A stretch of DNA of 61,325 bases, counting the filler. It is 4 parts of 4 records of this genome, joined end to end, with 100 filler letters (N's around TTAATTAATTAA, not from the genome) between each part and the next. Parts side by side here need not be neighbours in the genome. Positions count along the whole stretch, not along the records: positions 1 to 20,420 come from SRR2962707_3466; 3 more parts are not named here. The stretch is one strand, 5' to 3'. Within the stretch, counting starts at the first letter, position 1. The number at the start of each line of letters is the position of its first letter. Shown piece by piece: positions 3,998-20,542 of the stretch. The notes below the pieces were generated by a model. That model was not told the DNA's origin. It saw nothing but the letters and a program-made list of their open reading frames with translations, and did not search any database. Position numbers and translations under genes: made by a program.

Positions 3998-4062
3998 TGT
4001 CAGAAACTGTCCGTATTTGGTCCAATTATGCAATGTTACCATGTTCACGTTTTGCATACAAT
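3998..4062 (+). promoter_or_regulatory. Putative AraC-activated promoter of the transporter operon (operator 3998-4033, -10 TACAAT 4057-4062)
   Basis: TGTCAGAAACTGTCCGTATTTGGTCCAATTATGCAA matches the site at 8660-8695 at 21/36 positions. It has GTC repeats 21 bp apart and is followed by CATACAAT. Confidence 0.65.
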
Positions 4063-4114
4063 TTGGGTTGTAATGTTAATTTAATGTGATTTTAATCCGA
4101 TAGGGAGTTCTATT

Positions 4115-6505
4115 TTGAGCATTGAAACTCAAATTGCATCTCAGCCAAGCAAAATGAAACGCTTTACTGAGTTGCTGATACGTTTTCGATATCTGGTAAC
4201 GTTGATAGTCGTCGCCATATGTATAGCCACGAGCCTTGGGCAAAGCAGAGTTGGTTTTAGTAGTGACTACAGATATTACTTTGGTTCGCCTTCACCTGTA
4301 ATTGCCGCGATGGATAAGTTAGAGAGTGATTATGCACTTTCTGATAGTATTTATATTTCTATTAGTCCTAAGTCAGGCGGTACCGTATTCGACAAAGCTG
4401 TGCTTTCTGCTGTGTTGCATGCTACGCAAGAAGCTTGGAAAGTACCTTATGCGACGAGAGTTGATTCATTAAGTAACTACCAGAACACGGTGGCGAATGA
4501 TGATGATCTTACTGTAGCGCATCTATTTAAATCAGAGAGTGAATTAACCGGTTCTAATGTTGATTATATTCGTCAGGTAGCCCTTGCAGAACCAATGCTA
4601 GAAAACCGTATTGTTTCCGAGGATGGTGAGCATACCGGTGTGAATGTGGTGCTGACGCTTCCCGGTAAGTCACCCATGGAAACTTCTGAGGCCGTATCTT
4701 CAGTTCGGGAGTTAGCTAAGGTGCTTGAGAGTCAGTATCCTGTTGACGTTAGGTTGTCTGGCGTACATATGCTAAACCATGCTTTTGCTGAGATTGGCAT
4801 GCAAGATATCGTGAATATTATGCCTGTAATGTACATGGTGATGCTGGCAATATTGCTGGTGTTATTCCGTTCTGTCTTACAGGTATTGATGACAGTTGCG
4901 ATAGTGCATTTATCCACGATTACAACAATGGGTATTGTTGGTTGGCTTGGCATACCGCTTACCGCTCCATCTTCGATTGCCCCGACTATTATTCTAACGT
5001 TAGCGGTTGCAGACTCGGTTCATATCATAATGAGTTTTGTCATTGCTAAACGTCGTGGTGTAAGTGATGCGCAAGCGATAAAAGAGTCTATGTCGGTTAA
5101 TTTCATACCAATTTTATTGACCAGCTTGACGACTATTATTGGTTTTGTTGCCTTGAACTTCGCTGATGCACCTCCTTACCATGACTTAGGGAATATTACA
5201 GCTATAGGTGTGTTTATAGCGTTTGTTTTATCAGTCACCATGTTGCCCTGCTTGTTGTATATTTTACCGAATTGGATCAAACAAAAAGAGCAAGGCACGA
5301 AGTTTTCAGATAAGGTTTGGGCGAAACTATCCCATTTTATTGAGAGAAAATATAAGACCGTCATTATTATTTTCTCTGCATTAACTATTGCTTTTATGAT
5401 CCCCATTCCAAATTTGAAACTTGATGATAGGTGGGTTGAGTATTTTGCTGAGAATACTCAATTTAGAAATGATGCTGATTTTGTCCAAAAAAACGTAACA
5501 GGGTTATACGGTATTGAATTTAACATTCAGTCTCTTGGCTCTCAAGGGATCAGCGACGCTGAATATTTAAATACTCTGGATGATTTTGCTAAATACTATC
5601 GTGATTTTGATAACGTTTATAATGTGAGCGTATTAACCGATACCATGAAGCGATTGAATAAAAACCTTCATGGCGATGATCCAGACTTTTATCGCATTCC
5701 AGAAAATAAAGAGCTTGCGGCCCAATATTTATTGCTTTACGAAATGTCACTACCATATGGCCTAGATCTAACTAATCAGATCAATATGGACAAATCTAGC
5801 TCAAAGGTAGTGATTACGATGAAGGATGTTTCTACCAATGAACTAAGAGAGGCGGCAGCTAAAGGCGAAGCATGGTTAAAAAACAATGCGCCAGCCTACA
5901 TGCATGCAATTGGCTCAGGTGCTACGGTGATATTTGCTCATCAGTCTGAAGTTAATATTCAGGGGATGGTAACAGGCACGTTATTATCACTAATAATGAT
6001 TTGTGTAGTCGTATTTATTGCAATGCGCAACATAAAATACGGTCTTATCAGTGTGTTACCTAATGTATTACCAGCGATCTTTGCATTTGGCGCTTGGACT
6101 CTGCTCAGAGGACAGGCTGGAATGGAGGTTTCTATAGTCGTATCTGCCACTTTAGGCGTCATTGTCGATAACTGCGTCCACTTTATGATCAAGTATTTGC
6201 GAGGCAAAGAGCAATTTAATCTTACACCTGCCGGTGCTATTAAGTATGCCTATCAAAATGTCGGGAATGCATTGTTATTTACTTCAGTCACGTTAATTGC
6301 AGGTTATATCGTCTTAACCATGTCTTCTTTCTCGTTGAATAGCTCTCTAGGCTTGATGTCTGCGTTGACTGTCGTTGCAGCTTTATTAGTTATCAACATT
6401 TTACTTCCAGCGATAATTTTGTTTGTCGACCGTGCTGAGCAACGAGCTGCAGATGAAAAACTAGTAAACGTTCAACTTGCGTCTAAAGGAGAAATAATAT
6501 GTTAA
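4115..6505 (+). CDS. MMPL/RND-superfamily transporter
   Basis: Two repeats of TM + periplasmic loop + 5 TM, with LAVADSVH and GVIVDNCVHF motifs, PILLTSLTT and GNALLFTS. Confidence 0.9.
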   Translation: MSIETQIASQPSKMKRFTELLIRFRYLVTLIVVAICIATSLGQSRVGFSSDYRYYFGSPSPVIAAMDKLESDYALSDSIYISISPKSGGTVFDKAVLSAVLHATQEAWKVPYATRVDSLSNYQNTVANDDDLTVAHLFKSESELTGSNVDYIRQVALAEPMLENRIVSEDGEHTGVNVVLTLPGKSPMETSEAVSSVRELAKVLESQYPVDVRLSGVHMLNHAFAEIGMQDIVNIMPVMYMVMLAILLVLFRSVLQVLMTVAIVHLSTITTMGIVGWLGIPLTAPSSIAPTIILTLAVADSVHIIMSFVIAKRRGVSDAQAIKESMSVNFIPILLTSLTTIIGFVALNFADAPPYHDLGNITAIGVFIAFVLSVTMLPCLLYILPNWIKQKEQGTKFSDKVWAKLSHFIERKYKTVIIIFSALTIAFMIPIPNLKLDDRWVEYFAENTQFRNDADFVQKNVTGLYGIEFNIQSLGSQGISDAEYLNTLDDFAKYYRDFDNVYNVSVLTDTMKRLNKNLHGDDPDFYRIPENKELAAQYLLLYEMSLPYGLDLTNQINMDKSSSKVVITMKDVSTNELREAAAKGEAWLKNNAPAYMHAIGSGATVIFAHQSEVNIQGMVTGTLLSLIMICVVVFIAMRNIKYGLISVLPNVLPAIFAFGAWTLLRGQAGMEVSIVVSATLGVIVDNCVHFMIKYLRGKEQFNLTPAGAIKYAYQNVGNALLFTSVTLIAGYIVLTMSSFSLNSSLGLMSALTVVAALLVINILLPAIILFVDRAEQRAADEKLVNVQLASKGEIIC

Positions 6506-7287
6506 ATCTAAAAAAGATTTTTGTAGCAATCAACTTGCTAGCTGGCTCGACACTGGCATTTGCTGCGAGTAATGAAGATAAAGGGTTGCAACTTGCTCAG
6601 CTGGCAGATCAGGTGGATTCTGGATGGGTAGATCAAACGGTTGATATTACCATGACACTTCAAGATAGATCGGGTAATCAAAATATCCGTAAGGTAAGAA
6701 ATGAAATGCTTGAAGTTGAAGGTGATGGCGATAAAAGTTTAGTTGTATTTGATACCCCATATGATGTCAAAGGGACTGTGATGCTGTCGTTTAGCCACAA
6801 GGTTGGAGATGATGATCAGTGGCTTTACCTACCAGCTCTTAAACGGGTAAAACGAATTTCCTCTAGTAACAAGTCAGGACCTTTTATGGGAAGTGACTTT
6901 GCCTACGAAGACATGAGTTCACAAGAAGTTGAAAAATATACTTACAAGTTTATCCGAGAGGATGAATTTGAGGGCCAGGCAGTCAATGTTGTTGAGCGTA
7001 CTCCTGTATATGAAAACTCTGGGTATTCAAAGCAGCTTGTTTGGCTAGATAAGAAGCGTACGATTCCGCTTCAAATAGAATATTTTGATCGTAAAGGGAG
7101 TACTTTAAAAACCCAGTACTTTAAAGATTATCAGCTTTATAATGAGAGGTTTTGGCGCGTGGATGATTTGATGATGATAAACCATCAAAAAGGTACGCAG
7201 ACAACGATTTCATTTGATAATTATAACATTAGCCAAGGAGTACGGTTGACTAATTTTGCACAAGCAAACCTGTCTCGTATTAGGTAA
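6499..7287 (+). CDS. Outer-membrane lipoprotein-sorting (LolA-like) periplasmic protein
   Basis: Signal peptide and the DDDQWLYLPALKRVKRIS...FMGSDFAYED signature. It overlaps the MMPL stop codon. Confidence 0.85.
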   Translation: MLNLKKIFVAINLLAGSTLAFAASNEDKGLQLAQLADQVDSGWVDQTVDITMTLQDRSGNQNIRKVRNEMLEVEGDGDKSLVVFDTPYDVKGTVMLSFSHKVGDDDQWLYLPALKRVKRISSSNKSGPFMGSDFAYEDMSSQEVEKYTYKFIREDEFEGQAVNVVERTPVYENSGYSKQLVWLDKKRTIPLQIEYFDRKGSTLKTQYFKDYQLYNERFWRVDDLMMINHQKGTQTTISFDNYNISQGVRLTNFAQANLSRIR

Positions 7288-7290
7288 AAC

Positions 7291-7322
7291 TATTGGCTGA
7301 GTGAGCAATCACTCAGCCAATA
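7291..7322. other. Perfect 14-bp intra-operon hairpin
   Basis: TATTGGCTGAGTGA-GCAA-TCACTCAGCCAATA with no downstream U-tract on the + strand. Confidence 0.75.
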
Positions 7323-7337
7323 AGCAAAGGATTAGAT

Positions 7338-8498
7338 ATGAAGTTAATAGTGATGCTGTTGGCAGGTGTGTTAACCACCTTTGCTTGTATTGCAAATGTA
7401 GATATTAGAGGAACCGCTAATTTTAGTCAGCGACAATATACTGACGAGCAACCAGAGCACCATGAAAGTCAATCTCTGATTTTCATTGAGCCAGAGCTTT
7501 ATTTGCCTATTAATACTAATTGGAGCGCCCTTGCTAAACCGTATGCAAGATATGACAGCCTCGGGGCCGAACGACATCAGTTAGATTTCAGAGAACTCAA
7601 TCTGAGTTACATTAATGGTAAATTTGATGCAATACTTGGAGTTAGTGAGGTATTTTGGGGAGTAACAGAGTCGCAGCACTTAGTTGATATTGTTAATCAA
7701 ACAGATGTACTCAGTAGCATTGATGGCGAAGACAAACTCGGTCAGCCCATGCTGCAATTTAATTGGCTTCATGGCAGTGGTGCATTGCAAATGTTTGTCA
7801 TGCCTTACTTTAGAGAACGCAACTTTGCGAGCAAAGTACAGCGTCTGCAGCCTGATGTGGTCATTAATTCTGAGTCTGAATTTGAAGACAGTCAAGAAAA
7901 TAACCATACCGATTTTGCATTTAGAGCTACAAATTCTATAGGTAGCTGGGAGCTTGCTGCTTCATACTTTATTGGTACAAATCGTACTCCGAGTATGCTA
8001 CTTGAAAATGATCACTATACACAGTATTACAGTCAACTCACTCAATATGGATTGGAAGCTCAGGGGGTTTTTGGGGCGTGGCTTATTAAGAACGAAACCA
8101 TTTATCGCAAAGGACTGTACGACTGGGCAGTTGCTTATACCAGTGGTTTTGAGTACACACATGCTGGTGCTTTAGGTCAAGCAGACTTAGGTTATTTGAT
8201 TGAATATAGCTTTGATAATTTAGATGAAAATAGCCCTTCAAGTTTCCAAAATGATGTGTTTTTTGGCATTCGGGTAGCAATAAATGATGTTTCTGGATCT
8301 GAGGTATTGATTGGTGCTATTCACGATATTGACGCACACCATTGGACTATGTTCAGAGCAGAAGGTAGTACTCGAATTACTCCCTCTTTGAGATTGCGAG
8401 GAGAGATCTGGGTTGGGGATGAGACCAGAGAGAGCGATCCTTTGTTCAGCATCAAAAATGATGACTTTATTCAGTTAAGTTTTGAGTATTATTTCTAA
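7338..8498 (+). CDS. Putative outer-membrane beta-barrel protein partnered with MMPL/LolA-like genes
   Basis: Signal peptide, alternating beta-strand pattern, VFWGVTESQHLVDIVNQTD motif and C-terminal aromatic ending FEYYF. Confidence 0.75.
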   Translation: MKLIVMLLAGVLTTFACIANVDIRGTANFSQRQYTDEQPEHHESQSLIFIEPELYLPINTNWSALAKPYARYDSLGAERHQLDFRELNLSYINGKFDAILGVSEVFWGVTESQHLVDIVNQTDVLSSIDGEDKLGQPMLQFNWLHGSGALQMFVMPYFRERNFASKVQRLQPDVVINSESEFEDSQENNHTDFAFRATNSIGSWELAASYFIGTNRTPSMLLENDHYTQYYSQLTQYGLEAQGVFGAWLIKNETIYRKGLYDWAVAYTSGFEYTHAGALGQADLGYLIEYSFDNLDENSPSSFQNDVFFGIRVAINDVSGSEVLIGAIHDIDAHHWTMFRAEGSTRITPSLRLRGEIWVGDETRESDPLFSIKNDDFIQLSFEYYF

Positions 8499-8568
8499 AA
8501 TTAATTATTAAATAAAACCTATTGAGATATTAGTTATTTTAATTTTCACAATTTTCCCTTTGATTTAG

Positions 8569-8592
8569 AGCCCCTTTTTGGGGCTTTTTTTT
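8569..8592 (+). terminator. Rho-independent terminator ending the transporter operon
   Basis: AGCCCC-TTTTT-GGGGCT followed by a T run. Confidence 0.85.
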
Positions 8593-8659
8593 GCTTGTAA
8601 TTAAAATGTTTGTTTAGTTAATTTTGTGTAGCAAATTAGTTTACTTTATTTGTGTATTG

Positions 8660-8723
8660 TGTCGATAATTGGCTGGTTTTGGTCTGTAATTGCCATAAAA
8701 AAGGTTCTACGAAAACATACAAT
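8660..8723 (+). promoter_or_regulatory. Putative AraC-activated promoter of the biosynthetic operon (operator 8660-8695, -10 TACAAT 8718-8723)
   Basis: TGTCGATAATTGGCTGGTTTTGGTCTGTAATTGCCA has the same architecture as 3998-4062, with the -10 box 58 versus 59 nt from the motif start. Confidence 0.65.
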
Positions 8724-8754
8724 AATTCTATGATTTATTAATGATGGAATCAAA

Positions 8755-9843
8755 GTGGAGTATTTGAATAAACTGGTAAGTTCAATAAATGCACCGGCCT
8801 CAATATCGAATCTGCAGCTTAACAATCGGGTCGTGATGGCTCCTATGACTCAGGAAAGCTCTGTAAAGCATATACCAGGAAAGACGCAGATCGAACACTA
8901 CGGACAAAGAGCAAAACACGGCGTTGGTCTCATTATTACTGAAGGGACTGTTATTCCGCACTCTTCCGCTAATGGGCACTTCAATGTACCGCTTATGTAT
9001 TCTGCAGCTGCACTTTCGGGGTGGAGCAAAGTCGTCAATGAAGTACACCGTTTCAATAGCAAAATATTTGCCCAGCTTTGGCATGTTGGTGGAGTAAGAG
9101 ACGCTGCAATGCCGCCTGAAGTTGGCGTACCTGCAGTTAGTCCGAGCGGATTGTCAGCTCCAAATATACCCAATGGAAGAAAGCTGACCATCAAGGAAAT
9201 TGATGAGGTAATTGTGGCATATGCAAATGCCGCTAAGAATGCACAGCTTTGCGGCTTTGATGGTATTGAGATACATGCCGCACATGGATATTTGATCGAT
9301 CAATTCTTGTGGCAAGCAACTAACTTGCGAAGTGATCGATACGGCGGTATTACAGAAAATCGCTATCGCTTTGCTACAGAAGTGGTAACTGCTATCCGTG
9401 ATGCGGTCGGTCCCGATTTCACAATATGTTTTCGTTGGTCTCAATGGAAAATTCAAAACTTTTCAGCATGTTTGTTTCAATCGCCGGAAGAATTAGCTCC
9501 TTTCTTACAGACTGTCTCTGAGGCTGGTGTCGATATATTCCATACTAGCACTAGACGGTTTTGGGAACCTGGGTTTAAAGGTAGTGAAAAGACACTTGCA
9601 GGCTGGACAAAAGCCATTACACAAAAGCCTTGTATAGCCGTTGGGGGAGTGGGGTTAGGCAATGACTTCTTGCTTGGTGGGCCATCAAGTGGCAGTCAAC
9701 ATGTTTATGAAAGCTTGATTCGGGGGTTAGAAGGTAATGAATTTGACTTGATTGCAGTTGGTCGATCACTACTCGCTGACTCGGCGTGGTTTTCAAAATT
9801 AAATCAAAAAAGTACGCAAAATAATAACCATGTTTTGGCTTAG
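8755..9843 (+). CDS. NADH:flavin oxidoreductase (old yellow enzyme family)
   Basis: NRVVMAPMT, QLWHVG, GFDGIEIHAAHGYLIDQF, NLRSDRYGG, DLIAVGRSLL. Confidence 0.92.
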   Translation: MEYLNKLVSSINAPASISNLQLNNRVVMAPMTQESSVKHIPGKTQIEHYGQRAKHGVGLIITEGTVIPHSSANGHFNVPLMYSAAALSGWSKVVNEVHRFNSKIFAQLWHVGGVRDAAMPPEVGVPAVSPSGLSAPNIPNGRKLTIKEIDEVIVAYANAAKNAQLCGFDGIEIHAAHGYLIDQFLWQATNLRSDRYGGITENRYRFATEVVTAIRDAVGPDFTICFRWSQWKIQNFSACLFQSPEELAPFLQTVSEAGVDIFHTSTRRFWEPGFKGSEKTLAGWTKAITQKPCIAVGGVGLGNDFLLGGPSSGSQHVYESLIRGLEGNEFDLIAVGRSLLADSAWFSKLNQKSTQNNNHVLA

Positions 9844-9903
9844 CGATATCTTTCGTTAAAAAGCCAAGCATTAGGTGAAATAAGTTTATAAGGACTGAGA
9901 TTT

Positions 9904-10890
9904 ATGTCAAACCAGAATGTAACGGAGTTATCCCGTCAGATACTGCAACTCGTGTTCCGTGAGCGAAAGTTGGTAGAGTCCGAGGTTTCGCTAGCAAATG
10001 AAGTTCATGAATATCTAAGTGAAGATGAACTATACCCTCATCTAGATATGATAGAGCGGATGGTAATAAAAGATGAACCTATAACTATGGTATTACCAGC
10101 TTATCCGGGAAAATCACCAAACCGCAATAAAACATTAAGTAAATATCCAGATTTAGCTGAAAAGCATTCTATCGATATGCTTCATATACTTTGCGACAGG
10201 ATTGAAAAAATTTACCCGCCAGGTGTAAAGGTATTAATTTGTTCTGATGGCTATGTGTTTTCGGATCTTGTACGGATCCCTGATACAGATGTGCATAGCT
10301 ATACTGAGGCAATCAAAGAGTATTACACAAGGAATTACCCAACACAGTTCGATTTCTTCGATATTAAAGACGCCTTCCCAGAAATAAAATGCTTAGACGC
10401 GATGCGAGAAGAATTAATGATCCGCTATGGTGAGTCGTTGGTCAGTTTAACGAATCGTTCACAAAGTGAGAAAGAAACTCGTTCCATGTACCAAGGGATT
10501 ACTAAGTTTTTATTTGAGGATTTTCTCGGTTTAGTTGAGTTCACCCAAGTCAGTAAAACTCAGGTACAAAAAGCAGCTAAGTCTACGGCCTTAAGAGTAA
10601 TACTTCGTAGTAATGCTTGGAGCAAGCTACTGGAAGTGAGATCCCCTGAAGCCTTGCGACTATCAATCCATCCTCAATTTAGAGTTTCTCAAAAGATAGG
10701 CATAAAACTCGCCAATTCAGCAGATTGCTGGCGTACACCATGGCACTCAGTTGCGGTGCTGAGAAAGAATCAAATTCATCTTGCTCATAGAAATATGGTG
10801 AGCGAGAGCAGTCATCGATTGATGTTTAGTCAAGGCGCGCCAAGTCATTACGTGATGTCTTGGGAAAATGGGGCTGTAGCACATGTATAA
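9904..10890 (+). CDS. Isocyanide synthase (PvcA/IsnA/Dit1 family), stand-alone
   Basis: LPAYPGKSPN, ICSDGYVFSDLV, RSNAWS, LRLSIHPQ and TPWHSVAV are the characteristic ICS motifs. Confidence 0.9.
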   Translation: MSNQNVTELSRQILQLVFRERKLVESEVSLANEVHEYLSEDELYPHLDMIERMVIKDEPITMVLPAYPGKSPNRNKTLSKYPDLAEKHSIDMLHILCDRIEKIYPPGVKVLICSDGYVFSDLVRIPDTDVHSYTEAIKEYYTRNYPTQFDFFDIKDAFPEIKCLDAMREELMIRYGESLVSLTNRSQSEKETRSMYQGITKFLFEDFLGLVEFTQVSKTQVQKAAKSTALRVILRSNAWSKLLEVRSPEALRLSIHPQFRVSQKIGIKLANSADCWRTPWHSVAVLRKNQIHLAHRNMVSESSHRLMFSQGAPSHYVMSWENGAVAHV

Positions 10891-11530
10891 ACTCGCTATT
10901 TTCGATCTTGATGGCACCTTGGTCGATACTCTAAACAGCATCACCACGAGCGTAAATATTTTGAGAGAAAGAGTCGGCCTTAATGCCGTGGATAAAGTAT
11001 CTGTTTTACCGTTTATTGGTAAGGGGAGTGCAAATATGTTGCAAGCACTGTGTAATACTTCCTCTGGATCGTTACATAAGACTGTTGCCTCTTACAATAA
11101 AATATATGAAGACAACCTATTTACTCAGCTCAACGTTTATCAAGGTATAGGGCAACTACTTGAGAACTTGAGTACGCAAGGTGTAAAGACAGCAGTAGTC
11201 ACCAATAAATACCATCGTCAAGCACTAGATGTATTGGAGTACTGTTTTAAGCACTTTGCATTTGATGCAATTCAAGGTGTGACTGATGAAACACTCAAAA
11301 AACCTAATCCAGTTCAAACTGTAAAGCTTATCGAAAAACTCGGCGTTCAGGCTCATGAGGCGGTTTTTATTGGCGATTCAGAGATTGATTACCTTACCGC
11401 ACAGGCCTCAAGCATCGATTTTAAGTTTGTTACTTGGGGGTACGGCATAGCTGGACAGTTTGATCTTAAGACTGATGAGATTGTGAGTTCGGCACCAGAT
11501 TTACAAAAAGCAATATTAGGAACTTTCTAA
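10883..11530 (+). CDS. HAD-family phosphatase (phosphoglycolate-phosphatase-like)
   Basis: IFDLDGTLVDT, VVTNK, KKPNP and FIGDSEID. It overlaps the ICS stop codon. Confidence 0.9.
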   Translation: MYKLAIFDLDGTLVDTLNSITTSVNILRERVGLNAVDKVSVLPFIGKGSANMLQALCNTSSGSLHKTVASYNKIYEDNLFTQLNVYQGIGQLLENLSTQGVKTAVVTNKYHRQALDVLEYCFKHFAFDAIQGVTDETLKKPNPVQTVKLIEKLGVQAHEAVFIGDSEIDYLTAQASSIDFKFVTWGYGIAGQFDLKTDEIVSSAPDLQKAILGTF

Positions 11531-11539
11531 GAGAACATC

Positions 11540-13744
11540 ATGGAAATTTATAACTACATAAAGATAAGCGATAGGGTTGCATTAGCAGGTCAGCCATCAG
11601 CACAAGAGTTTGAAGAGCTAGTAGCGAATGGTGTGGATTGCGTCATTAACCTTGCACCATATGATGAGCGTTATTCTATAGACAATGAAGCTGAACTGAT
11701 TGAAAGACTTGCTGCAACGTATATATACTACCCAATAGACTTTGCGAATCCAACACTTAAAGATTATGCAAAAGTAGAAGCGCTGCTGTTGGATAATCAA
11801 GATAAAAATGTACTACTGCATTGCGCAGCTAACTACCGAGCTTCGTTGCTATTTGGGCATTTTGCGATTCGTCACTTGGGCTGGAGTCGCGCAGAAAAAA
11901 AGGCCTTGATAAACCAGATTTGGTCATTGGACAACTTTCCTACTTGGAAGGTTTTGGACAAAAAGCTTGATGCTGGATTAAGCGACGATATTAATACGCA
12001 GGTAGCTGATGTTATCGAAATGTACTTGGTGCAATCCGGCGATGGCTTTGCAAAGGCGGGGCGAACCCATCTTGCAAATGCGATTAATGTATTTACTAGT
12101 CAAGATCAGGCTGTGCAACTTATACTACCTGGGTTTCCGTGCAAATCACCAAACATAGAAGCGAAATCATTTTCTAAATTGCCAGATTACGGTGAGGTAT
12201 TAGCCGTAGAGCGTATGCAGTCTATGTGTGATGATATCCAAGATATTTATTCAAAAGGCGCGAAAATAACCATTATTAGTGATGGTGCAACTTTCTCTGA
12301 TCTTGTTGGTGTTGATGATTCCATCATGCAGGAATATAACGCAGCATTAAGAACGTTAACCATAACTCATGACATACAATGGGCAGATTTAACCGATTTA
12401 TGTCAGTTGGAAAAAGCAAATTCAGAATATGACTCTGCTTATCTAAGAAAGCAGCTACTAAAGAATTTAACAATCAATCCCAGAGCACTGCAAAATTATA
12501 CCGATAAGGTTAAAAAAGATGCGCAGCTTCGTATCGAACATGATGACTTATGCAGCTATCTATATAACGATGTTTGTCTTGTACATTTATCGCAAAACGA
12601 TAGAGACGATTACTTGGCAAGTATATGCGATAAAGCCTATGAAATGATGTTTCGAGGTAAAGCTCTGACGCATAGTATTAATGAACGATTCTCAAATCAT
12701 ATCCGCTTGTCAACGCACCGATATGACAATACAGGGCCAAAGTTCTCTATCGCTTTATCCGCGAATAACCAACAAGTACTAGCGCCTTGGCACGCTGTTC
12801 CTGTGATGCGCTTGAATGGCAATGTTGAGTTGATGCCGCATGCAACAGCTAAAGAACTCAATGTCGCTAATGTGACTTTCGCAAATAGCAACTGGATGTA
12901 TATCGAAGTTTCGGAAGCGCGTTTGACAACATTGCAATTTGAAGTTCTGAAGTCACCTCGTTTCGGGCTTAAAATAACCCTACCTTCAGATGTGACTTAT
13001 CAAGAGCTGCAGCCTCAATTCCTAACCATGTTAAGCCAAGAGTTCGGTTTTATTTTACTTCCAAATGCTGACTTTGAAGAAGAACAGGAGTTAGTTGAGT
13101 TAACTGCTCCTTTTGGTGAGATTTATCAATGGCAGTTTGGGCCAGTTCATGTGGTGAAGCCTGAAGAAAAGCCTAATGGATTTGTTCACTCGATTGAAAA
13201 AACACCATTACATTGGGATTTGAGCATGTTACCGCTCGATCATGAGCGTGTTATTGATAATGAGCGTTTCTACGCATCAACCTTTTTACTTTACTGTAAA
13301 ACCGCTGCGCAGCCTGGCGAAGGGCAAACCACGATTGTTGATAGTCGAAATGTGTTGAAGCTTGCTGGTCGGAAAAAGGTTAGGGAGTGGCAAGAAACAG
13401 AAGTTATCTACTCCACAAAAATGACTTACTTTGGCGGTGTGCCGCGAGTTTATCCTTTGGTGTTTGAACACCCCAAAAATGGTGAGCTACTGCTGCGTTA
13501 TCAAGAGGGAAGTAACTCTGAGCTCCAAACTTTTGAATTGAGCTCAGAGCAACTTGAAAGCAATACATTTAATGCGGTGATCTCTGAAGTCAATGAGTTG
13601 TGTTATGACGAGCGCTGCATGATTGCCCATGACTGGCAGGATGGCGATTTAATCATAGTAGACAATCATTACACCCTACACGGAAGGTTGTCTATGACGG
13701 AGCTTTCTATGAGCCGTGAAGTGTGGCGAGTACAGGTAATTTAA
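11540..13744 (+). CDS. Three-domain fusion: DUF442/PTP-fold Cys domain + isocyanide synthase + TauD-like Fe(II)/2OG dioxygenase
   Basis: aa ~1-145: AGQP, VINL, LLHCAANYR. aa ~150-460: LPGFPCKSPN, IISDGATFSDLVGV, IRLSTH, APWHAVPV. aa ~465-734: PLHWD (HxD), GEGQTTIVD, HDWQDGDLIIVDNHYTLHGR. Confidence 0.88.
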   Translation: MEIYNYIKISDRVALAGQPSAQEFEELVANGVDCVINLAPYDERYSIDNEAELIERLAATYIYYPIDFANPTLKDYAKVEALLLDNQDKNVLLHCAANYRASLLFGHFAIRHLGWSRAEKKALINQIWSLDNFPTWKVLDKKLDAGLSDDINTQVADVIEMYLVQSGDGFAKAGRTHLANAINVFTSQDQAVQLILPGFPCKSPNIEAKSFSKLPDYGEVLAVERMQSMCDDIQDIYSKGAKITIISDGATFSDLVGVDDSIMQEYNAALRTLTITHDIQWADLTDLCQLEKANSEYDSAYLRKQLLKNLTINPRALQNYTDKVKKDAQLRIEHDDLCSYLYNDVCLVHLSQNDRDDYLASICDKAYEMMFRGKALTHSINERFSNHIRLSTHRYDNTGPKFSIALSANNQQVLAPWHAVPVMRLNGNVELMPHATAKELNVANVTFANSNWMYIEVSEARLTTLQFEVLKSPRFGLKITLPSDVTYQELQPQFLTMLSQEFGFILLPNADFEEEQELVELTAPFGEIYQWQFGPVHVVKPEEKPNGFVHSIEKTPLHWDLSMLPLDHERVIDNERFYASTFLLYCKTAAQPGEGQTTIVDSRNVLKLAGRKKVREWQETEVIYSTKMTYFGGVPRVYPLVFEHPKNGELLLRYQEGSNSELQTFELSSEQLESNTFNAVISEVNELCYDERCMIAHDWQDGDLIIVDNHYTLHGRLSMTELSMSREVWRVQVI

Positions 13745-13756
13745 GGAATATATAAA

Positions 13757-14944
13757 ATGAATAACACGATGACATTTGAACAAATAGATAACAATATTGA
13801 TGGAATTATTAATCAAATAGCTGCGGCGAGTGCAGATATTGAAGCACTGAGAAGGTTACCAGAAAGTACAGTTACTCTGCTTAAAGATACTGGTGTCTTC
13901 AGTATGGCGATGCCAAAATCAATGGGAGGGGCAGAACTTGACCCTATCAGTCAAATTAAACTGATTGAGAAAATATCTCGTGCTAATAGTGCAGCAGGGT
14001 GGTGCACTATGATCGGTTCAGACAGTGGCTATTTTGCAGCAATGTTACCTCAAGAACTTGCAATTAAAACCTATCCAAACCCACATGTCATTAGTGGTGC
14101 TGCATTATCGCAAACGGGTAAAGCGCGCAAAGTTGCTGGTGGTTTTATGGTAAGTGGTCGTTGGCCTTTTGTAAGTGGTTGTAATAATGCACAGTGGTTG
14201 ATTGCGGGTTGTAAAGTGTATGACGGTGAAGACATGGTGCTACTTGATGGAGAAGTTCCGCAAACACTGCAATGTTTTTTAAATATGTCAGATCTTGAAA
14301 TCCTTGATACTTGGCATGTGATGGGGTTACGGGGTAGTGGAAGTAATGATGTCGCGCTGCAACAAGAGGTATTTGTTGCAGAGGAAATGACGTTTAGCTT
14401 CCAGCAACCAAGAAGTTTTCAGGATGGAGCGCTTTACCAATTTCCAATGGCTTTTATGTTTAATTTCTCTGCTGTACCTCTTGGGTTGGCGCAATCTGCA
14501 CTAGACTTTTTTCTTTCGCAGGCAAATAAACCGACAAGGCAAGTTCATCAAGCTGGGCAATTTTTAAAAGGTCGTACATTAAAAGATGAATCTTTTGTAC
14601 AAGGTACGGTTGGCGAAGCTGCAACGAAACTCAGAATGTTACGAGCATTTTTGTATCATGAAGTTGAGCAAATTTGGACTTTATTAAAACAAGATGAGGT
14701 TCCTTCTCCAGTGCAACAAGTGGCTTTTTTGGCAGCTACCACGGAAGTGTTTAGCGGCTGCCAAGAGATTGTAGAAACATTAGTTAAGTGTCGTGGTGGT
14801 TCAGCGGTTTATCAGGGAAACCCGTTAGAGCAAGCGCTTCGAGATATTGTCACTATGAATCAACATGCTATGACCTCACCGCGTAACCAACATCAATTGG
14901 GGAGAGCGCTGCTAGGTGTTCCACCTGAGCAGATTTTACTTTAA
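13757..14944 (+). CDS. Acyl-CoA-dehydrogenase-fold flavin-dependent monooxygenase (HsaA/C2-HpaH-like)
   Basis: RRLPE, MPKSMGG, SAAGW, VSGRWPFVSGCNNAQW, DTWHVMGLRGSGSND, GGSAVY...LEQALRD. Confidence 0.85.
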   Translation: MNNTMTFEQIDNNIDGIINQIAAASADIEALRRLPESTVTLLKDTGVFSMAMPKSMGGAELDPISQIKLIEKISRANSAAGWCTMIGSDSGYFAAMLPQELAIKTYPNPHVISGAALSQTGKARKVAGGFMVSGRWPFVSGCNNAQWLIAGCKVYDGEDMVLLDGEVPQTLQCFLNMSDLEILDTWHVMGLRGSGSNDVALQQEVFVAEEMTFSFQQPRSFQDGALYQFPMAFMFNFSAVPLGLAQSALDFFLSQANKPTRQVHQAGQFLKGRTLKDESFVQGTVGEAATKLRMLRAFLYHEVEQIWTLLKQDEVPSPVQQVAFLAATTEVFSGCQEIVETLVKCRGGSAVYQGNPLEQALRDIVTMNQHAMTSPRNQHQLGRALLGVPPEQILL

Positions 14945-15009
14945 AAGGTGAACCTGCGTCGGTGATGCAGGGCATCTCCTATACTTGTTAAAAAGCAAGG
15001 AGCTACGAA

Positions 15010-16458
15010 ATGAATTCGTTAGAAAACTACTTTTTTCCTTATCGCGAGGGAATAATAGGCACAGAATACAAGGTATCTAGAAATAATCAGAGCAAGTCTT
15101 TAATTTATGCTGATTGGACGGCTAGCGGGCGTTTATATGAGCCAATAGAATGTTATATAAATAAAGAACTAGGACCTTATATTGCTAACACCCACACAGA
15201 GTCTAATGAGACCTCTCGAGTGATGACTAAGGCATATCATGAGGCGCAGGATATCATCAAAGCGCATGTCAATGCGGATGATGATGACATCTTATTATTT
15301 ACTGGAAACGGTTCAACAGCAGCTGTAAATAAGTTACAGCGTTTAATGGCATTGAAAGGAGCCTGTGTCGATGCAGAGCCTCTTCCAGTGGTTTTTGTTA
15401 CGCACATGGAGCATTACTCAAATCACGCTTCATGGCTGGCATGCGACGTCGAAGTTGTTGTTATTCCTGCTGCAAAAGGTAAGCCTGCGTCTGATTTAGC
15501 CGCCTTTAAACGCTTGTTATCTACGTACGAGGGGCGCCAGATTATTGGTGCATTTAGCGCGGCCTCTAATGCTTCTGGTGTGTGTACTAAGCTAAGTGGT
15601 TTAGCGGCTTTAGTGCACCAATACGGCGGTATCTGTATTGCTGATTTCGCAGCAGCAGCTCCATATGTTGATATCAACATGCATCCTGATCGACATGAAT
15701 GTCGCTTGGACGCGGTCTTTTTCTCCCCACACAAGTTTTTAGGTGGTCCCGGTGCTTCAGGTGTGTTGATATTTAATAAAAGTTTATATCGGCTAAATAC
15801 CCCAGACCAACCTGGAGGTGGTACGGTAGAGTCAGTGGATAAGATGGGCAATCCCACTTATATCGCAGATATTACGCAAAGAGAAGATGGTGGAACACCT
15901 GGAACATTACAAGCTGTTCGTGCAGCTTTGGCTGTGGTGCTAAAGGAAAAAATGGGAGTGGAAAACATTCTTGCAAGAGAAAAAGAGCTCAGATTTTTAC
16001 TTGCACAGCAGTTACGAGCCATTTCAGGCCTCCATATTGTTGAAGATCAGCCGGTTGAAAAGCTGGGTATTATTTCCTTTTTTGTTAATAACCTTGACCA
16101 CAACGACATTGCTGAGGAATTAGATAACCAATTCGCGATTCAAGTTCGAGGTGGGATCTCTTGTGCTGGCTATTATGCCCATCATATTTTTAAGAAGGAA
16201 TTTGAAAAGCTAGGGTGTGGTGTAAAAAGTGCTACGCCAGCAGGTTGGGTAAGAATTTCGTTACATCCGACAATGACGACAGCAGAAATAAATGAAATCG
16301 GCACTGCAGTCAAGGCTGTTATTGAGCAGCTAAAATTGAGTAAAAAAACCAGTAGTAAATTAATTACAGATAAGCAGATGGATCTCCGCGAGGTTGAGCT
16401 ATTTTCGTCTTCTACAAGCTGGAATAAACAAAACGAAGAAGTAGCGATAGGTGTTTAA
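15010..16458 (+). CDS. Class V PLP enzyme, cysteine desulfurase/selenocysteine lyase-like
   Basis: YADWTASGR, EHYSN, DFAAAAPY, PLP Lys in FSPHKFLGGPG, EDGGTPG, Cys loop RGGISCAG and GWVRIS. Confidence 0.85.
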   Translation: MNSLENYFFPYREGIIGTEYKVSRNNQSKSLIYADWTASGRLYEPIECYINKELGPYIANTHTESNETSRVMTKAYHEAQDIIKAHVNADDDDILLFTGNGSTAAVNKLQRLMALKGACVDAEPLPVVFVTHMEHYSNHASWLACDVEVVVIPAAKGKPASDLAAFKRLLSTYEGRQIIGAFSAASNASGVCTKLSGLAALVHQYGGICIADFAAAAPYVDINMHPDRHECRLDAVFFSPHKFLGGPGASGVLIFNKSLYRLNTPDQPGGGTVESVDKMGNPTYIADITQREDGGTPGTLQAVRAALAVVLKEKMGVENILAREKELRFLLAQQLRAISGLHIVEDQPVEKLGIISFFVNNLDHNDIAEELDNQFAIQVRGGISCAGYYAHHIFKKEFEKLGCGVKSATPAGWVRISLHPTMTTAEINEIGTAVKAVIEQLKLSKKTSSKLITDKQMDLREVELFSSSTSWNKQNEEVAIGV

Positions 16459-17101
16459 TCTTGGTTTGTTCGTTATTGTGGGTTATTAAATGAGTTGAAA
16501 TATATCTTAAAGGCTTGGTTTTTGTCGATAACGATCAAGCTCCATCAAAAGAGACGTAATCACTGATACATATTTTCGGGAGTAACCTACCAGCTATTTT
16601 TGGAGTGGGCCAAAGTGGCGAGGTGTTTAGCGCTTATTTTGACAAAGAAGCAACAAGTAGATGCTCAAGCAGTAACTTGCTTTAATTGAACCTGCGGGCA
16701 GCAGTGCACAAACGCAAGATAAAATCGGTGACAGTGGCGCTAGGTAGTAACATCAATACATACGTGCAAAGTAATCGGTGTTTGTGTTACTTCCACTGAT
16801 TCTTATTACCAGCGAAGCTGGCAAACCAGAGGTGCCATAATAAGTAAAAGATGCATAAGTAACTGTAACCCGCTTCGGCAGTATTTGCGATTAAGCGTGC
16901 AAAATAGCGTAACATTATATACTTTATCAGATCAGTATTGCATTTGAGAATGTGGTTTCTAATAAGCTCCAAGTGTAGTAACTGGGAAGTCAGGTATCTA
17001 AACTTGGCGGAAAGTAAGTCACTGAAATTAAATAGCAATGCATCAGGCTAACCGTTAAACTAAAAGTCATCCTTAGAATCTACTATCTAAAGCTTAGGAA
17101 T

Positions 17102-17560
17102 TTACTTAGCCTTAGCATCAGTTCCAAGTAAGCTCTCAATGTAGGCGAGTTCTTCGCTAAAAATACCATTAAAAAATGCACTTTGCTCAACGGTTACTGC
17201 GTCATTAGGTTGGGCTTTGTAGTCTTGCTGGCATCTGACAAGTTCGCTTGATATCCATTGGCATACGTCGGTTGCTGTATTTATTGCTGTTTTTAAAAAC
17301 GATGACCATTTAATCTTTTGTAAATTAAAGCGATAGAGTGTTACAGCAATAAGGCTATATGCATGTTGCTCAGATGAGGGCGTGTTATCACTCTTTATTG
17401 TGTAACTATTTAGCAGCTTACTGCTGATAAGCGCGTGTTGCAGTGCGACTTGTTGTGGTTCACTTAGAAAAGTAGTGGTCATAACGTATTGGTGGCCTCT
17501 ATCCGCTGGATTAAACGTGGCATTTAAACTGGAAGCTAGGCAAGGCGTTGGATGACTCAT
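17102..17560 (-). CDS. Hypothetical protein (true start possibly ATG 17482)
   Basis: 152-aa ORF with no recognised motif. AGAGG lies upstream of the internal ATG. Confidence 0.45.
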   Translation of the reverse strand: MSHPTPCLASSLNATFNPADRGHQYVMTTTFLSEPQQVALQHALISSKLLNSYTIKSDNTPSSEQHAYSLIAVTLYRFNLQKIKWSSFLKTAINTATDVCQWISSELVRCQQDYKAQPNDAVTVEQSAFFNGIFSEELAYIESLLGTDAKAK

Positions 17561-17714
17561 GCAATAGCGAAGAAATGCAGCAACAGTGATAGCAAATCAG
17601 GACTGACTCTTTACTGAATTAGTCAAATACAATTGTAATCGAAGAAGTGGTTTAGGTTCTAATTTGTGGTTTACTGCTGTGCTGGCCTGTAGGTAAAAAC
17701 AACTAATAAAAGGT

Positions 17715-17748
17715 CAGCCAACAACGATTACTTAATGGTTGTTGGCTG
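17715..17748 (-). terminator. Probable terminator downstream of the DUF885 gene
   Basis: CAGCCAACAAC / GTTGTTGGCTG 11-bp inverted repeat followed by a T-rich run on the minus strand. Confidence 0.6.
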
Positions 17749-17790
17749 GTACTTATTACATAAATATGCATCAATCAAATGCAATGAGCG

Positions 17791-19533
17791 CTACTTTTTC
17801 TGTTGTGCTATCCAGTCGTTGATGACTTCCTCAAGCACAGCTATCGGCAGTGAGCCTTGGCCAATTACGGTGTCGTGAAAGCGACGAATGTCAAAATTAG
17901 CTCCAAGCTCTTTTTCTGCTTTTGCCCGGAGCTCGCGTATTTTTAACTCGCCCATTTTGTAAGAAAGCGCTTGAGCAGGCCATGATATATAACGATCAAT
18001 TTGGTCTTCTACGGCACTTTGTGGCAATGCCGTATACTCGTTTAAGTAGTTAATCGCGCGCTCTCGACTCCAGCCAAATGCGTGAATACCAGTATCAACA
18101 ACTAGTCTGACTGCACGCCACATTTCGTAGCCTAAGCGGCCAAAGTCGCTGTATGGGTCTTGATAAAAACCGGCTTCTTTACCAAGACGCTCAGCATAGA
18201 GCCCCCAGCCTTCGCCAAATGCAGAGTGGTTCAATGTGCGTCTAAATTGCGGTACATCAAGCTCCATTGCTATCGCATTTTGTAAATGATGGCCCGGTAT
18301 GGCTTCGTGCAAACTTAAGGCTTCTAAATTATATAGAGGTTGTAACGAAGGTGTTGAGGCTAAGAAGTAAGTGCCTGCTGAGCGATTATCTGCCGGTGGC
18401 ATATAAAAAGCCCCTCGACTTGCAGAGTCTTTAATTGCGAAGGTGTTGCGCGGTAAATGGCTGAAATAAGTCGGCAATTTGCCATACATTTTTTGAGTAA
18501 TGAAGGCCGCTTTTTCTAATAAATCTTGTTTGTCGGTGGCATAAAACTGAGGATCGGTGGCTAAAAATTTTAAGAAGTCAGCATATGTGCCTTTAAAATT
18601 CAGAGAGTCAATAATAGCCTGCATTTGGGCTTTAATACGTGCGACTTCCTGTAGGCCTAACTCATGGATCGCTTTAGGTGTCGCTTGTGTCGTGGTGTAG
18701 TAATTTACTGCATATTGATAATATTCAAGCCCGCCTTCAATGCTCGAAATACCAGGCTTTGCCCTGCAGTTTGGCATGTAATCATCAACAAAAAAATCAT
18801 AAAAATGTTGGTACGCAGGGATCACTTTATTGCTAATCAGCTTTTTTGCTTTTTCTTGATAAGCTGCCTTTTGCTGTTGGCTAAAGGTGTTGGGTATACG
18901 AGTGAACGGCTCGTACAAAGCACTATTTTTTGGATCTTTAACAATATGCGCACTGATGCTCTTGCCGTAGTTTTTAAAGGTGGTGCAATAGTGTGTGTAG
19001 CCGTGTTGTACACCTTCTTTCATCAAGCTTATGTTTTCTTGATTAAAGCGAGGGTAGTCGTCCAAACTGATTAAAAAGTTGTCGTAGTCGGCTGTGGTTA
19101 AAAACGCCATGTTTGCAGGAGCCTCAGCAAAGTAGGTGTGCCAGCCGCTTAAAAAGTTAACAGGAAAATACTTATCATATGACTGGTAGCTTTTTTGCTC
19201 GGTTTCGCGCTCATATTTAAACAGTCGATAATTCATTAACTGTGCTTTACTGAGAGATTGCGCGTCAATAGCGGCTAATTTTTGCAACACTTGTTTGTTA
19301 TAGGCTTGGCGTTTTTGTATTGCTTGCTCAGTCCAATTAGCAAGTTTGCCATTGGGTTTCCAGCCATCTGGGTCGGTACGAAAGAATATTTTTTCACCTT
19401 GTGCATGCTGCCAGTGCTGATCAATTATATTTTTTAAATTGGTATTGTCATCAGCGTGGCTTAGCAATGAAAAAAGAGTTAAAGAAAGAGCCAAGAGGTT
19501 TATTTTATACATGTTTTTTCTCATAATTAGCAA
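17791..19533 (-). CDS. DUF885 family secreted protein (putative metallopeptidase)
   Basis: Signal peptide, LHEAIPGHHLQ, AFGEGWGLYAE, RAVRLVVDTGIH, DRYISWPAQALSYKMG. Confidence 0.9.
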   Translation of the reverse strand: MLIMRKNMYKINLLALSLTLFSLLSHADDNTNLKNIIDQHWQHAQGEKIFFRTDPDGWKPNGKLANWTEQAIQKRQAYNKQVLQKLAAIDAQSLSKAQLMNYRLFKYERETEQKSYQSYDKYFPVNFLSGWHTYFAEAPANMAFLTTADYDNFLISLDDYPRFNQENISLMKEGVQHGYTHYCTTFKNYGKSISAHIVKDPKNSALYEPFTRIPNTFSQQQKAAYQEKAKKLISNKVIPAYQHFYDFFVDDYMPNCRAKPGISSIEGGLEYYQYAVNYYTTTQATPKAIHELGLQEVARIKAQMQAIIDSLNFKGTYADFLKFLATDPQFYATDKQDLLEKAAFITQKMYGKLPTYFSHLPRNTFAIKDSASRGAFYMPPADNRSAGTYFLASTPSLQPLYNLEALSLHEAIPGHHLQNAIAMELDVPQFRRTLNHSAFGEGWGLYAERLGKEAGFYQDPYSDFGRLGYEMWRAVRLVVDTGIHAFGWSRERAINYLNEYTALPQSAVEDQIDRYISWPAQALSYKMGELKIRELRAKAEKELGANFDIRRFHDTVIGQGSLPIAVLEEVINDWIAQQKK

Positions 19534-19736
19534 GTTAGAGCTTTTATAAAGCAGTCGCGTAGGGTATTAGTTTTGCGTACTTTATAGCTAAAATTAGGGT
19601 ATCAAATTAACGTTGTAAATGCGCTGGCTTTTTCAGCTAGAGCCAATTGAAAACTAATTACTTATTGAGATCGACATCGGTGATAAAGCCGTACAACATA
19701 GGCTAGCGGTTAAACTATTCTACAAAGGGGCTTTCA

Positions 19737-20420
19737 TTGGATTCACTCACACAAGTTGTACTTGGTAGCGCAGTTGCTTATTCAGTATTAGGCAATAAGC
19801 TTGGCCGAAAATCGCTATTGGTTGGTGCGGCGTTTGGCACGTTACCTGACTTAGATGTGCTGATTAATTTTGGTGGCAATGTTGAGAACTTTGTTCAGCA
19901 CCGTAGCTTTAGCCATTCTATTCTTGTGCAACTATTAATTAGCCCTTTGTTTGCATGGCTTTTACTTAAAATGAATTGGGCTAAAGGGGTGTCGTTAACG
20001 CGCTGGTCTATTGCTATATTTTTGATTTTGAGTACCCACGCCTTACTTGATAGTTTTACTGTTTATGGCACACAGTTACTGTGGCCGCTTTCGACATACC
20101 CGTTCGGTATTTCGAGTATATTTATAATTGACCCCGCTTATACTCTGCCACTTATAGTCTCGTGTATTGGGCTTTGTTTTGTGCGTACTAAGAATCAAGC
20201 TCAACGCATAAATACCTGCGCGTTAATTGTCAGTTCGCTTTATTTAACGTGGGGGTTAACGGCAAAGTGGCATATCAACGAGAAGATTTATCAGGCGCTA
20301 AATAACCAGAACATTACATTTAAACACTTTGAAAGTATGCCTACCCCTTTTAACACCATGCTTTGGCGAGCGATAGCCGTGACTGAGCAAGGGCATTATG
20401 AGATTTATGCCTCTGTGTTT
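19737..20420 (+). CDS. Metal-dependent membrane hydrolase (YdjM/LexA-binding family), 3' truncated
   Basis: MDSLTQ, GTLPDLD, HRSFSHS, THALLDSFTVYGTQLLWP, IFIIDP. The ORF runs into the N spacer. Confidence 0.85.
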
Positions 20421-20520
20421 NNNNNNNNNNNNNNNNNNNNNNNNNNNNNNNNNNNNNNNNNNNNTTAATTAATTAANNNNNNNNNNNNNNNNNNNNNNNN
20501 NNNNNNNNNNNNNNNNNNNN
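20421..20520. other. Artificial contig-joining spacer
   Basis: N44-TTAATTAATTAA-N44 (stop codons in all frames). Base composition changes abruptly across it. Confidence 0.97.
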
Positions 20521-20542
20521 ACCGGCGGGGACTGGCTGTAAC

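Follow-up and report, generated by a model that had tools for sequence, protein, structure and literature searches.

The stretch of DNA analysed here (61,325 nucleotides, referred to below as the window) carries at 11540..13744, on the plus strand, a single unbroken frame of 734 codons that encodes a protein of three domains: an N-terminal domain with a protein tyrosine phosphatase (PTP) fold, a diverged isonitrile synthase (ICS)-like domain and a TauD/IsnB-type dioxygenase domain. Sequence comparisons identify the N-terminal domain as a homologue of SpgC and the rest of the protein as the counterpart of SpgD, so that the gene is a natural SpgC-SpgD fusion, located in an isonitrile cluster of the type described for sinapigladioside (the spg cluster). 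None of its components is of a new kind; the papers that we searched describe neither this architecture nor its connection with a sulfur-transfer step. We tentatively read the N-terminal domain as a persulfide-carrying sulfurtransferase that would convert a vinyl isonitrile to an isothiocyanate.

The N-terminal domain (residues 1–148, 11540..11983) belongs to a family that includes the solved structure 3gxg, annotated as a 'putative phosphatase (DUF442)', and is distantly related to DUF442 proper. Its active-site loop, C95-A-A-N-Y-R100 (11822..11839), is of the Cys-X4-Arg type and is immediately preceded by H94. Asp67 of the motif PIDF (11738..11740) lines up with PIPDF in archaeal PTPs and is a candidate general acid, the role that this Asp has in PTPs. 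The ICS-like domain, hereafter ICS2, covers residues 182–441 (12083..12862; Pfam DIT1_PvcA, PF05141, 208.8 bits) and is followed by the Fe(II)/2-oxoglutarate dioxygenase domain at residues 480–731 (12977..13732; TauD, PF02668, 95.2 bits), whose His-X-Asp...His triad (H558, D560 and H714) is kept in 18 of 18 aligned sequences. The AlphaFold2 model of the whole fused protein has a mean pLDDT of 81.4 and a pTM of 0.75, and its top structural matches in Foldseek are PvcA, PIsnA, P.IsnB and PvcB; the ICS2 part matches PvcA/PIsnA (3e59/9dh4, E ∼ 5e-18) and the TauD part matches P.IsnB (7tcl, E = 1.3e-17). A first-pass annotation, made from the DNA letters, had described three domains in one frame, a PTP fold at the N-terminus, an active-site Cys codon at 11822-11824 and a Cys-X4-Arg loop. 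All four descriptions hold: the 734-aa frame gives the Pfam and 3gxg matches expected of them, the codon is tgc and the loop reads C95-AANY-R100.

In Breoghania, Arenicella, Burkholderia and Pseudomonas sp. Au-Pse12, the PTP and ICS2-TauD parts are separate genes that adjoin or overlap each other, which could point to a frameshift or an assembly error that has joined two adjacent genes in the window. Such an artefact is scarcely credible, however, because the same architecture recurs in 11 protein clusters from distant bacteria and because contigs cross the domain junction without indels. A word-indexed search returned 55 homologues, of which 11 protein clusters (P0002-P0010, P0020 and P0025, with P0010 named Candidatus Thiodiazotropha and P0020 named Pseudomonas solani, and with P0003-P0010 and P0025 of metagenomic origin) span 99–100% of the query; 10 of these are further to the window protein itself. 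In a genome scan that yielded 438 ICS-TauD loci, an independent assembly, that of Pseudoalteromonas sp. S2755 (L001/L080), proved to have a 92% identical copy with the same unbroken frame (737 aa). The source of the window is therefore most likely a Pseudoalteromonas, and genome searches were centred on the genome of this relative. Erwinia sp. AnSW2-5 has the PTP, ICS and TauD domains fused in-frame in an open frame of 775 codons. Contigs from four other public runs cover the stretch with no insertions or deletions listed, and in run X2 a single contig extends over 11711-12400, the domain junction included. The possibility of an assembly artefact that was raised in the first-pass annotation can thus be set aside. 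The architecture, which that annotation described as unusual, is not unique, since the fusion recurs in several lineages. The three-domain form was absent among the 36 loci from a metagenome scan.

A 759-codon open reading frame in Burkholderia stagnalis LMG 28156 (locus L061, 9988-12267) was rejected as a further fusion, because the first ∼ 140 codons are read out of frame. The true PTP gene of that locus, which stops at 10417, uses a different frame, and PTP and ICS2-TauD are separate genes there. In high-GC DNA such as this, lists of open reading frames can mimic fusions and need a frame check.

In the sinapigladioside cluster, spgA encodes a stand-alone isonitrile synthase, spgB an MFS (major facilitator superfamily) transporter, spgC is listed as a 'tyrosine phosphatase gene' and spgD codes for an IsnA-IsnB fusion whose IsnA part is devoid of conserved motifs; the glycosyltransferase gene spgE and further genes follow spgD, and an AraC regulator, spgZ, is encoded in the cluster as well (Dose et al., 2021; PMC8252389). 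Sinapigladioside is an isothiocyanate derived from an isonitrile, and an orthologous cluster has been named in B. stagnalis (PMC8252389). In the B. stagnalis LMG 28156 locus, which comes from a strain other than that of the paper, the gene order (ICS, MFS, PTP, ICS/TauD, glycosyltransferase ... methyltransferase ... FAD ... SDR) equals the published spg order, and the PTP is 39% identical to the N-domain of the window protein. In a family tree of 54 rows, all 17 ICS-linked PTPs, whether fused or adjacent, fall into one clade (SH-aLRT 95) that also takes in 3 proteins encoded away from ICS genes and 11 whose context is not known, and the subclades of this PTP clade mirror those of the ICS2-TauD tree.

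The three-part core of the spg type, consisting of a stand-alone ICS, a diverged ICS-IsnB fusion and a PTP-fold gene, is present in the window. The components come in the same order as in the spg cluster, the ICS domain of the fusion has diverged in both, and both have an AraC regulator and a flavin oxygenase nearby. The differences are that SpgC and SpgD form one polypeptide in the window, that the window also encodes a HAD phosphatase and a SufS-like desulfurase, that the identity is about 35–39% and that glycosyltransferase and sugar genes are missing: no glycosyltransferase or deoxysugar/xylose genes were found at 3005-21460 of the window, whereas L061 and the Arenicella and Breoghania loci have them. 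In the latter two, a macrolide-type glycosyltransferase is encoded 3' of ICS2-TauD (12202-13533 in the Arenicella locus L011 and 11945-13183 in the Breoghania locus L043; 41% identical to each other), which parallels the position of spgE after spgD. The products of these two clusters are likely to be glycosylated.

The stand-alone synthase ICS1, which is SpgA/IsnA-like, is encoded at 9904..10890 on the plus strand, two genes upstream of the fusion (Pfam 261.8 bits). Its score against the NCBIfam model TyIsonSynPvcA is 222 bits, as compared with 109 bits for the fused ICS2. In 19 ICS sequences of the stand-alone type, 65 columns are near-invariant, and a set of 20 ICS2 domains retains just 26 of them. 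Despite the 39 losses, ICS2 is well conserved within its own group, with motifs such as LPGFPCKSPN and RLSxHxYxNxGPK, a pattern that suggests a new function rather than decay. ICS2 is a diverged paralogue and, since it keeps so few of the columns, ICS1 is probably the enzyme that makes the isonitrile. The ICS domain of SpgD was likewise unable to replace SpgA in Burkholderia gladioli (PMC8252389). The proposal of the first-pass annotation that one polypeptide makes the isocyanide, modifies it and sulfurates it is therefore not supported, since the first step probably falls to a separate ICS1. The pairs IsnA/IsnB and PvcA/PvcB, of the rhabduscin and paerucumarin pathways, share with the window the combination of an ICS with an Fe/2-oxoglutarate-dependent decarboxylase-desaturase, but these are separate proteins with no PTP domain, second ICS paralogue or desulfurase, and their products are isonitriles.

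Across 79 genome loci, the usual core of this cluster type consists of ICS1, a HAD phosphatase and ICS2-TauD. Accessory genes were counted in the 67 loci with an in-frame ICS2-TauD, leaving out two further PTP-only loci from Burkholderia. A HAD phosphatase alone was found in 41 of the 67 loci, neither PTP nor HAD in 18, both in 4 (the window included) and a PTP alone in another 4. The PTP is fused or adjacent to ICS2-TauD in Pseudoalteromonas, Erwinia, Pseudomonas, Arenicella, Breoghania and Burkholderia, and in the ICS2-TauD tree its presence is scattered over all major proteobacterial branches with at least 6 changes, which fits an old association followed by repeated loss. Lineages with neither PTP nor HAD include Chromobacterium, Xenophilus and Phenylobacterium. 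The ICS1-HAD-ICS2/TauD arrangement is the commonest form in Pseudomonas, Shewanella, Dickeya and Pantoea. In HAD-ICS-TauD fusions, exemplified by Thalassomonas and Pseudoalteromonas sp. S16_S37, the ICS2-TauD core is about 52–53% identical to that of the window, and a hydrolase-type domain occupies the same place, although it is a HAD phosphatase and not a PTP fold. Neither a PTP nor a desulfurase was found in the loci of these fusions. To our knowledge, no product has been assigned to the HAD-ICS2-TauD or ICS1-HAD-ICS2/TauD clusters.

The N-domain is a PTP-fold protein related to DUF442, in what its sequence marks as a distinct, 3gxg-like subfamily. It matches 3gxg with E = 4.6e-16 (E = 1e-37 with the family profile), and the loop HCLANYRAS of 3gxg corresponds to HCAANYRAS in the window protein. 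The pair 3gxg/3gxh is the closest solved relative, sharing the HC(L/A)ANYRAS loop and a PVDW motif; its family consists of ∼ 150-aa stand-alone proteins with miscellaneous neighbours and partners, whereas the window domain is fused. In Pfam the domain gives only weak matches to DSP-PTPase families (PF22785, E = 0.006; PF22741, E = 0.061). Its stand-alone relatives of ∼ 150 aa, which are 35–47% identical to it, bear PF04273 (DUF442) and/or PF22741 in precomputed annotation. The kinship to DUF442 is argued because of the 3gxg match, these PF04273-bearing relatives and sub-threshold matches to the NCBIfam models Blh and TIGR01244.

Every one of 20 aligned family members has H94, C95 and R100, and in an alignment of 18 sequences each of the 12 proteins that are fused or bear the N-domain reads HCAANYR. 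In classical Cys-based phosphatases the general-acid Asp is placed about 28–32 residues ahead of the Cys; D67 of the window protein is kept in the ICS-linked members and is absent from some stand-alone relatives. In the HMMER family profile, canonical Cys-X5-Arg loops of dual-specificity phosphatases align only with a one-residue insertion, and the PTP signature HC-X5-R(S/T) is absent from the window protein, whose loop is one residue shorter with the Ser/Thr position shifted by one (R-A-S). The family profile also matches 2f46 (E = 2.4e-9), which we take to be Neisseria NMA1982 and whose loop, YCRTGTRCS, is of the C-X4-R type too. The same loop length is seen in a DUF442 gene that adjoins a persulfide dioxygenase gene (FCRTGTRC). 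The composition of the window loop, HCAANYR, differs from the rhodanese-like CRxGxR of these two proteins. The DUF442 label of the first-pass annotation holds for a distant relationship only: the PF04273 model itself is unmatched and the loop composition is different.

The N-domain family is large, with 413 representatives in a full HMMER scan at a cut-off of E ≤ 1e-30 and 4446 at one of E ≤ 1e-10. Long proteins (> 240 aa) account for 38 of its top 150 representatives, and scanning them for partner domains revealed GNAT (8 cases), tandem PTP (5), NUDIX (2), histidine phosphatase (2) and methyltransferase (2) domains, as well as PfkB kinase, P-loop kinase-like, RidA, SnoaL and other domains in single cases. 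Fusions to GNAT acetyltransferases are therefore recurrent in this 3gxg-like Cys-X4-Arg family (8 of the 38 long members). Of 400 gammaproteobacterial genomes sampled, 64 have stand-alone members at E ≤ 1e-10, and ∼ 30 places give matches below 1e-30; at 29 such loci there were no relatives of ICS, TauD, HAD or desulfurase genes within 1.5 kb. Weaker matches to the N-domain profile lie inside gammaproteobacterial open frames of 821, 594 and 576 aa (G017, G284 and G369), which may be fusions of DUF442 to sulfide-oxidation enzymes.

The sulfurtransferase reading of the N-domain, which we offer tentatively, would run as follows. ICS1 would make an alpha-isonitrile acid from ribulose-5-phosphate and an aromatic amino acid, of which Tyr is the probable one, and the TauD domain would decarboxylate and desaturate this acid to a vinyl isonitrile, ICS2 acting as a substrate-holding or otherwise non-canonical module. 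In the two steps that form the hypothesis proper, the SufS-like enzyme encoded downstream would deliver cysteine sulfur as a persulfide to Cys95 of the N-domain, and this persulfide would attack the isonitrile carbon, much as a rhodanese acts on cyanide, and free a vinyl isothiocyanate. The flavin-dependent monooxygenase and the Old Yellow Enzyme (OYE)-family oxidoreductase of the operon would decorate the ring, and the MMPL and LolA-like genes would export the product.

The precedent for such a role comes from the DUF442 domains of Blh (Xylella/Agrobacterium) and of the sulfide:quinone oxidoreductase (SQR) of Cupriavidus pinatubonensis, which are thiosulfate:cyanide sulfurtransferases by experiment (PMC5823870, PMC9163753); to this extent the first-pass annotation was justified in regarding DUF442 as a sulfur-transfer module. 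As in the window, these domains have a PTP fold, a Cys-X4-Arg loop with the Cys near position 94–95 and an N-terminal place in a fusion. The loop length is thus common to the window domain and the DUF442 sulfurtransferases. Their partner, however, is a sulfide-oxidation enzyme, whereas the window domain is joined to an enzyme of isonitrile biosynthesis. In the SQR DUF442, Cys94 is the catalytic residue, and the effect of losing it was masked by the rhodaneses of the Escherichia coli host (PMC9163753).

The second line of evidence is the desulfurase gene at 15010..16458 (plus strand), one gene beyond the fusion, after the flavin monooxygenase gene. Its product is a SufS-like class-V pyridoxal phosphate (PLP) enzyme, a putative cysteine desulfurase, and its motifs SPHKFLGGPG and VRGGISCAG align with the PLP-lysine and catalytic Cys loop motifs of solved SufS proteins; all 26 family sequences compared have K242 and C385. 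With a score of 134 against a SufS cut-off of 475, it belongs to a widespread separate subfamily of ∼ 490-aa proteins. The first-pass annotation had named this protein as the partner in a check for persulfide formation, and the protein is indeed SufS-like, with both the PLP Lys and the loop Cys kept. In Erwinia, a NifS/IscS-type cysteine desulfurase (L045, 12866-14419; Pfam E = 1.3e-77, NCBIfam NifS E = 4.5e-119) is encoded directly 3' of the fused gene and outside any isc operon. An RND efflux pump and a TetR regulator are encoded upstream in this locus. The Erwinia and window desulfurases are non-orthologous, being 22% identical and of different types, so each of the two lineages has recruited a desulfurase of a different type to the neighbourhood of the fusion. 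Of the 79 loci, 10 have a PTP, and 2 of these 10 carry a desulfurase-family gene, against 0 of the 69 others, counts that are uncorrected for relatedness. A predicted complex of the SufS-like protein with the N-domain, run without controls, scored 0.00 and weighs neither way.

Third, the spg cluster, the only characterised one of this type, itself makes an isothiocyanate. A sulfurtransferase gene was not found in the spg cluster, and the authors proposed housekeeping rhodaneses for a sulfur transfer from isonitrile to isothiocyanate whose enzyme was not identified (PMC8252389). When we searched the literature for this fusion, or for a described enzyme that converts isonitriles to isothiocyanates, the sinapigladioside paper was the only one to come up. 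That SpgC-like domains are isonitrile sulfurtransferases, charged by the cluster desulfurase here and by housekeeping sulfane sulfur elsewhere, with compensation by rhodaneses or spontaneous persulfide chemistry accounting for the silence of spgC, is a possibility that we entertain with some doubt.

Several observations weigh against the sulfurtransferase reading. Deletion of spgC in B. gladioli left isothiocyanate production unchanged (PMC8252389); one explanation that can be offered is masking of the kind described for the SQR DUF442, where host rhodaneses concealed the loss. The DUF442 model PF04273 gives no match to the window N-domain at E ≤ 10, and the NCBIfam matches are far below their cut-offs (Blh, NF040641: E = 2.4e-7, 30 bits versus 625; TIGR01244: E = 0.005, 16.9 bits versus 85.85). 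The DUF442 protein adjoining the persulfide dioxygenase has neither the His nor the PIDF Asp, whereas the window domain has both H94 and D67, a difference established for this one DUF442 protein. No SQR or ETHE1-type (persulfide) dioxygenase was found above threshold among the 38 long family members, and the neighbours at 24 stand-alone gammaproteobacterial loci (90 open frames) are miscellaneous, with one rhodanese among them. Within 10 kb, 8 of the 10 PTP-bearing loci have no desulfurase gene. Finally, a HAD phosphatase is fused N-terminally to ICS2-TauD, at the same position as the PTP, in 7 protein clusters (P0012, P0014, P0015, P0016, P0018, P0026 and P0027, 812–827 aa; loci L002 and L059), and a PTP occurs without HAD in 6 loci when the two Burkholderia loci are included, which fits a functional overlap with a phosphatase.

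These points lead to the alternative, named in the first-pass annotation too, of a phosphatase role for the N-domain, alongside the HAD enzyme or in its stead. The set of Cys95, Arg100 and Asp67 would hydrolyse an ester of ribulose-5-phosphate, of its adduct or fragment, or of another phosphorylated intermediate, and the sulfur mobilized by the desulfurase would reach the product in some other way or be used for something else. The His-Cys pair, the Arg and the PIDF Asp are all kept, the nearest Pfam models are DSP-PTPase families, and the partners in the family include NUDIX, His_Phos_1, PfkB and P-loop kinase-like domains. The HAD phosphatase is a core gene of these clusters and occupies the position of the PTP in other fusions, 6 PTP-bearing loci lack HAD, and a phosphatase would be in line with the silent spgC knock-out. 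This role is a serious rival, though in our view somewhat less likely than sulfur transfer. The P-loop is one residue shorter than that of every active Cys-X5-Arg PTP, HAD and PTP occur together in the 4 loci mentioned above and so are not simple substitutes, and the presence of desulfurases beside PTP-bearing clusters only would be left unexplained. In the accepted ICS mechanism, moreover, the phosphate is released by elimination and no phosphatase is needed. A literature search for an ICS combined with a phosphatase found nothing relevant.

The same silent knock-out, the strict conservation of Cys95 in a non-standard loop and the existence of Chromobacterium, Xenophilus and Phenylobacterium clusters with neither PTP nor HAD, which makes the domain accessory, would also suit some other cysteine chemistry or a non-catalytic role. 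Cys95 might capture the electrophilic isonitrile in thioimidate form, whether to channel it, as self-protection or to hydrate it to a formamide, or the domain might be a redox or regulatory switch of the dioxygenase or an aid to folding or assembly. Such roles appear improbable, as conservation of the His/Cys/Arg/Asp set across the Alpha-, Beta- and Gammaproteobacteria favours catalysis, and no precedent was found in the literature searched. What probability remains goes to roles outside those considered here. As for the sulfurtransferase idea of the first-pass annotation, it draws support from the loop length, the desulfurase neighbour and the isothiocyanate made by the spg cluster, and is weakened by the silent spgC deletion and the PTP-like His and Asp.

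The fused gene appears to be part of an operon of six genes that are tightly spaced on the plus strand. The first gene of this putative operon codes for an OYE-family FMN oxidoreductase (8755..9843) and is preceded by a terminator-like site at 8567-8587 and a promoter-like site at 8640-8669. It is followed by the ICS1 gene, by the gene for a HAD phosphatase resembling phosphoglycolate phosphatase (10883..11530), which overlaps the ICS1 gene by 8 nt, and by the fusion. The last two genes encode an HsaA/HpaB-like flavin-dependent monooxygenase (13757..14944) and the SufS-like enzyme; in tblastn searches with these two proteins, homologues were found only in the Pseudoalteromonas locus L001 among the loci searched, and the Erwinia desulfurase came to light through a Pfam scan alone.

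Upstream of the operon, the plus strand carries genes for an MMPL/RND (HAE3-type) transporter (4115-6505), a LolA-like protein (6499-7287) and a 386-aa protein without a family match (7338-8498). In the Pseudoalteromonas relative (L001) these three genes keep their synteny with the operon, and together they may serve for export. An MMPL gene is also found near the cluster in Arenicella. Divergent from the MMPL transporter gene is that of an AraC-family regulator with an N-terminal DJ-1/PfpI domain (3005-4057, minus strand); the spg cluster, too, has an AraC regulator, spgZ. The genes at 3005-8498 are possible accessory genes, whose membership of the cluster we infer. Isonitrile hydratases are DJ-1/PfpI proteins, and the regulator could thus sense the product. 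At its left end, the window carries a fragment of an IS200-like transposase with a DnaA-C-like helix-turn-helix (5-829) and a gene for a PhoD-like phosphatase (961-2565).

How bacteria form isothiocyanates has been addressed by a single genetic study, which found an isonitrile pathway and no sulfurtransferase, and set aside the 'tyrosine phosphatase' of the cluster after its knock-out proved silent. The N-domain described here is a candidate for the missing step, given its repeated fusion to an isonitrile-processing enzyme, its loop of sulfurtransferase length and the presence of a desulfurase in two lineages, and the compact operon of the window, whose source is a non-pathogenic marine bacterium, offers a convenient system in which to test it. 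If the domain is instead a phosphatase, then a widespread class of clusters, with two ICS genes and a HAD or a PTP, would have a phosphate-handling step beyond the current ICS mechanism.

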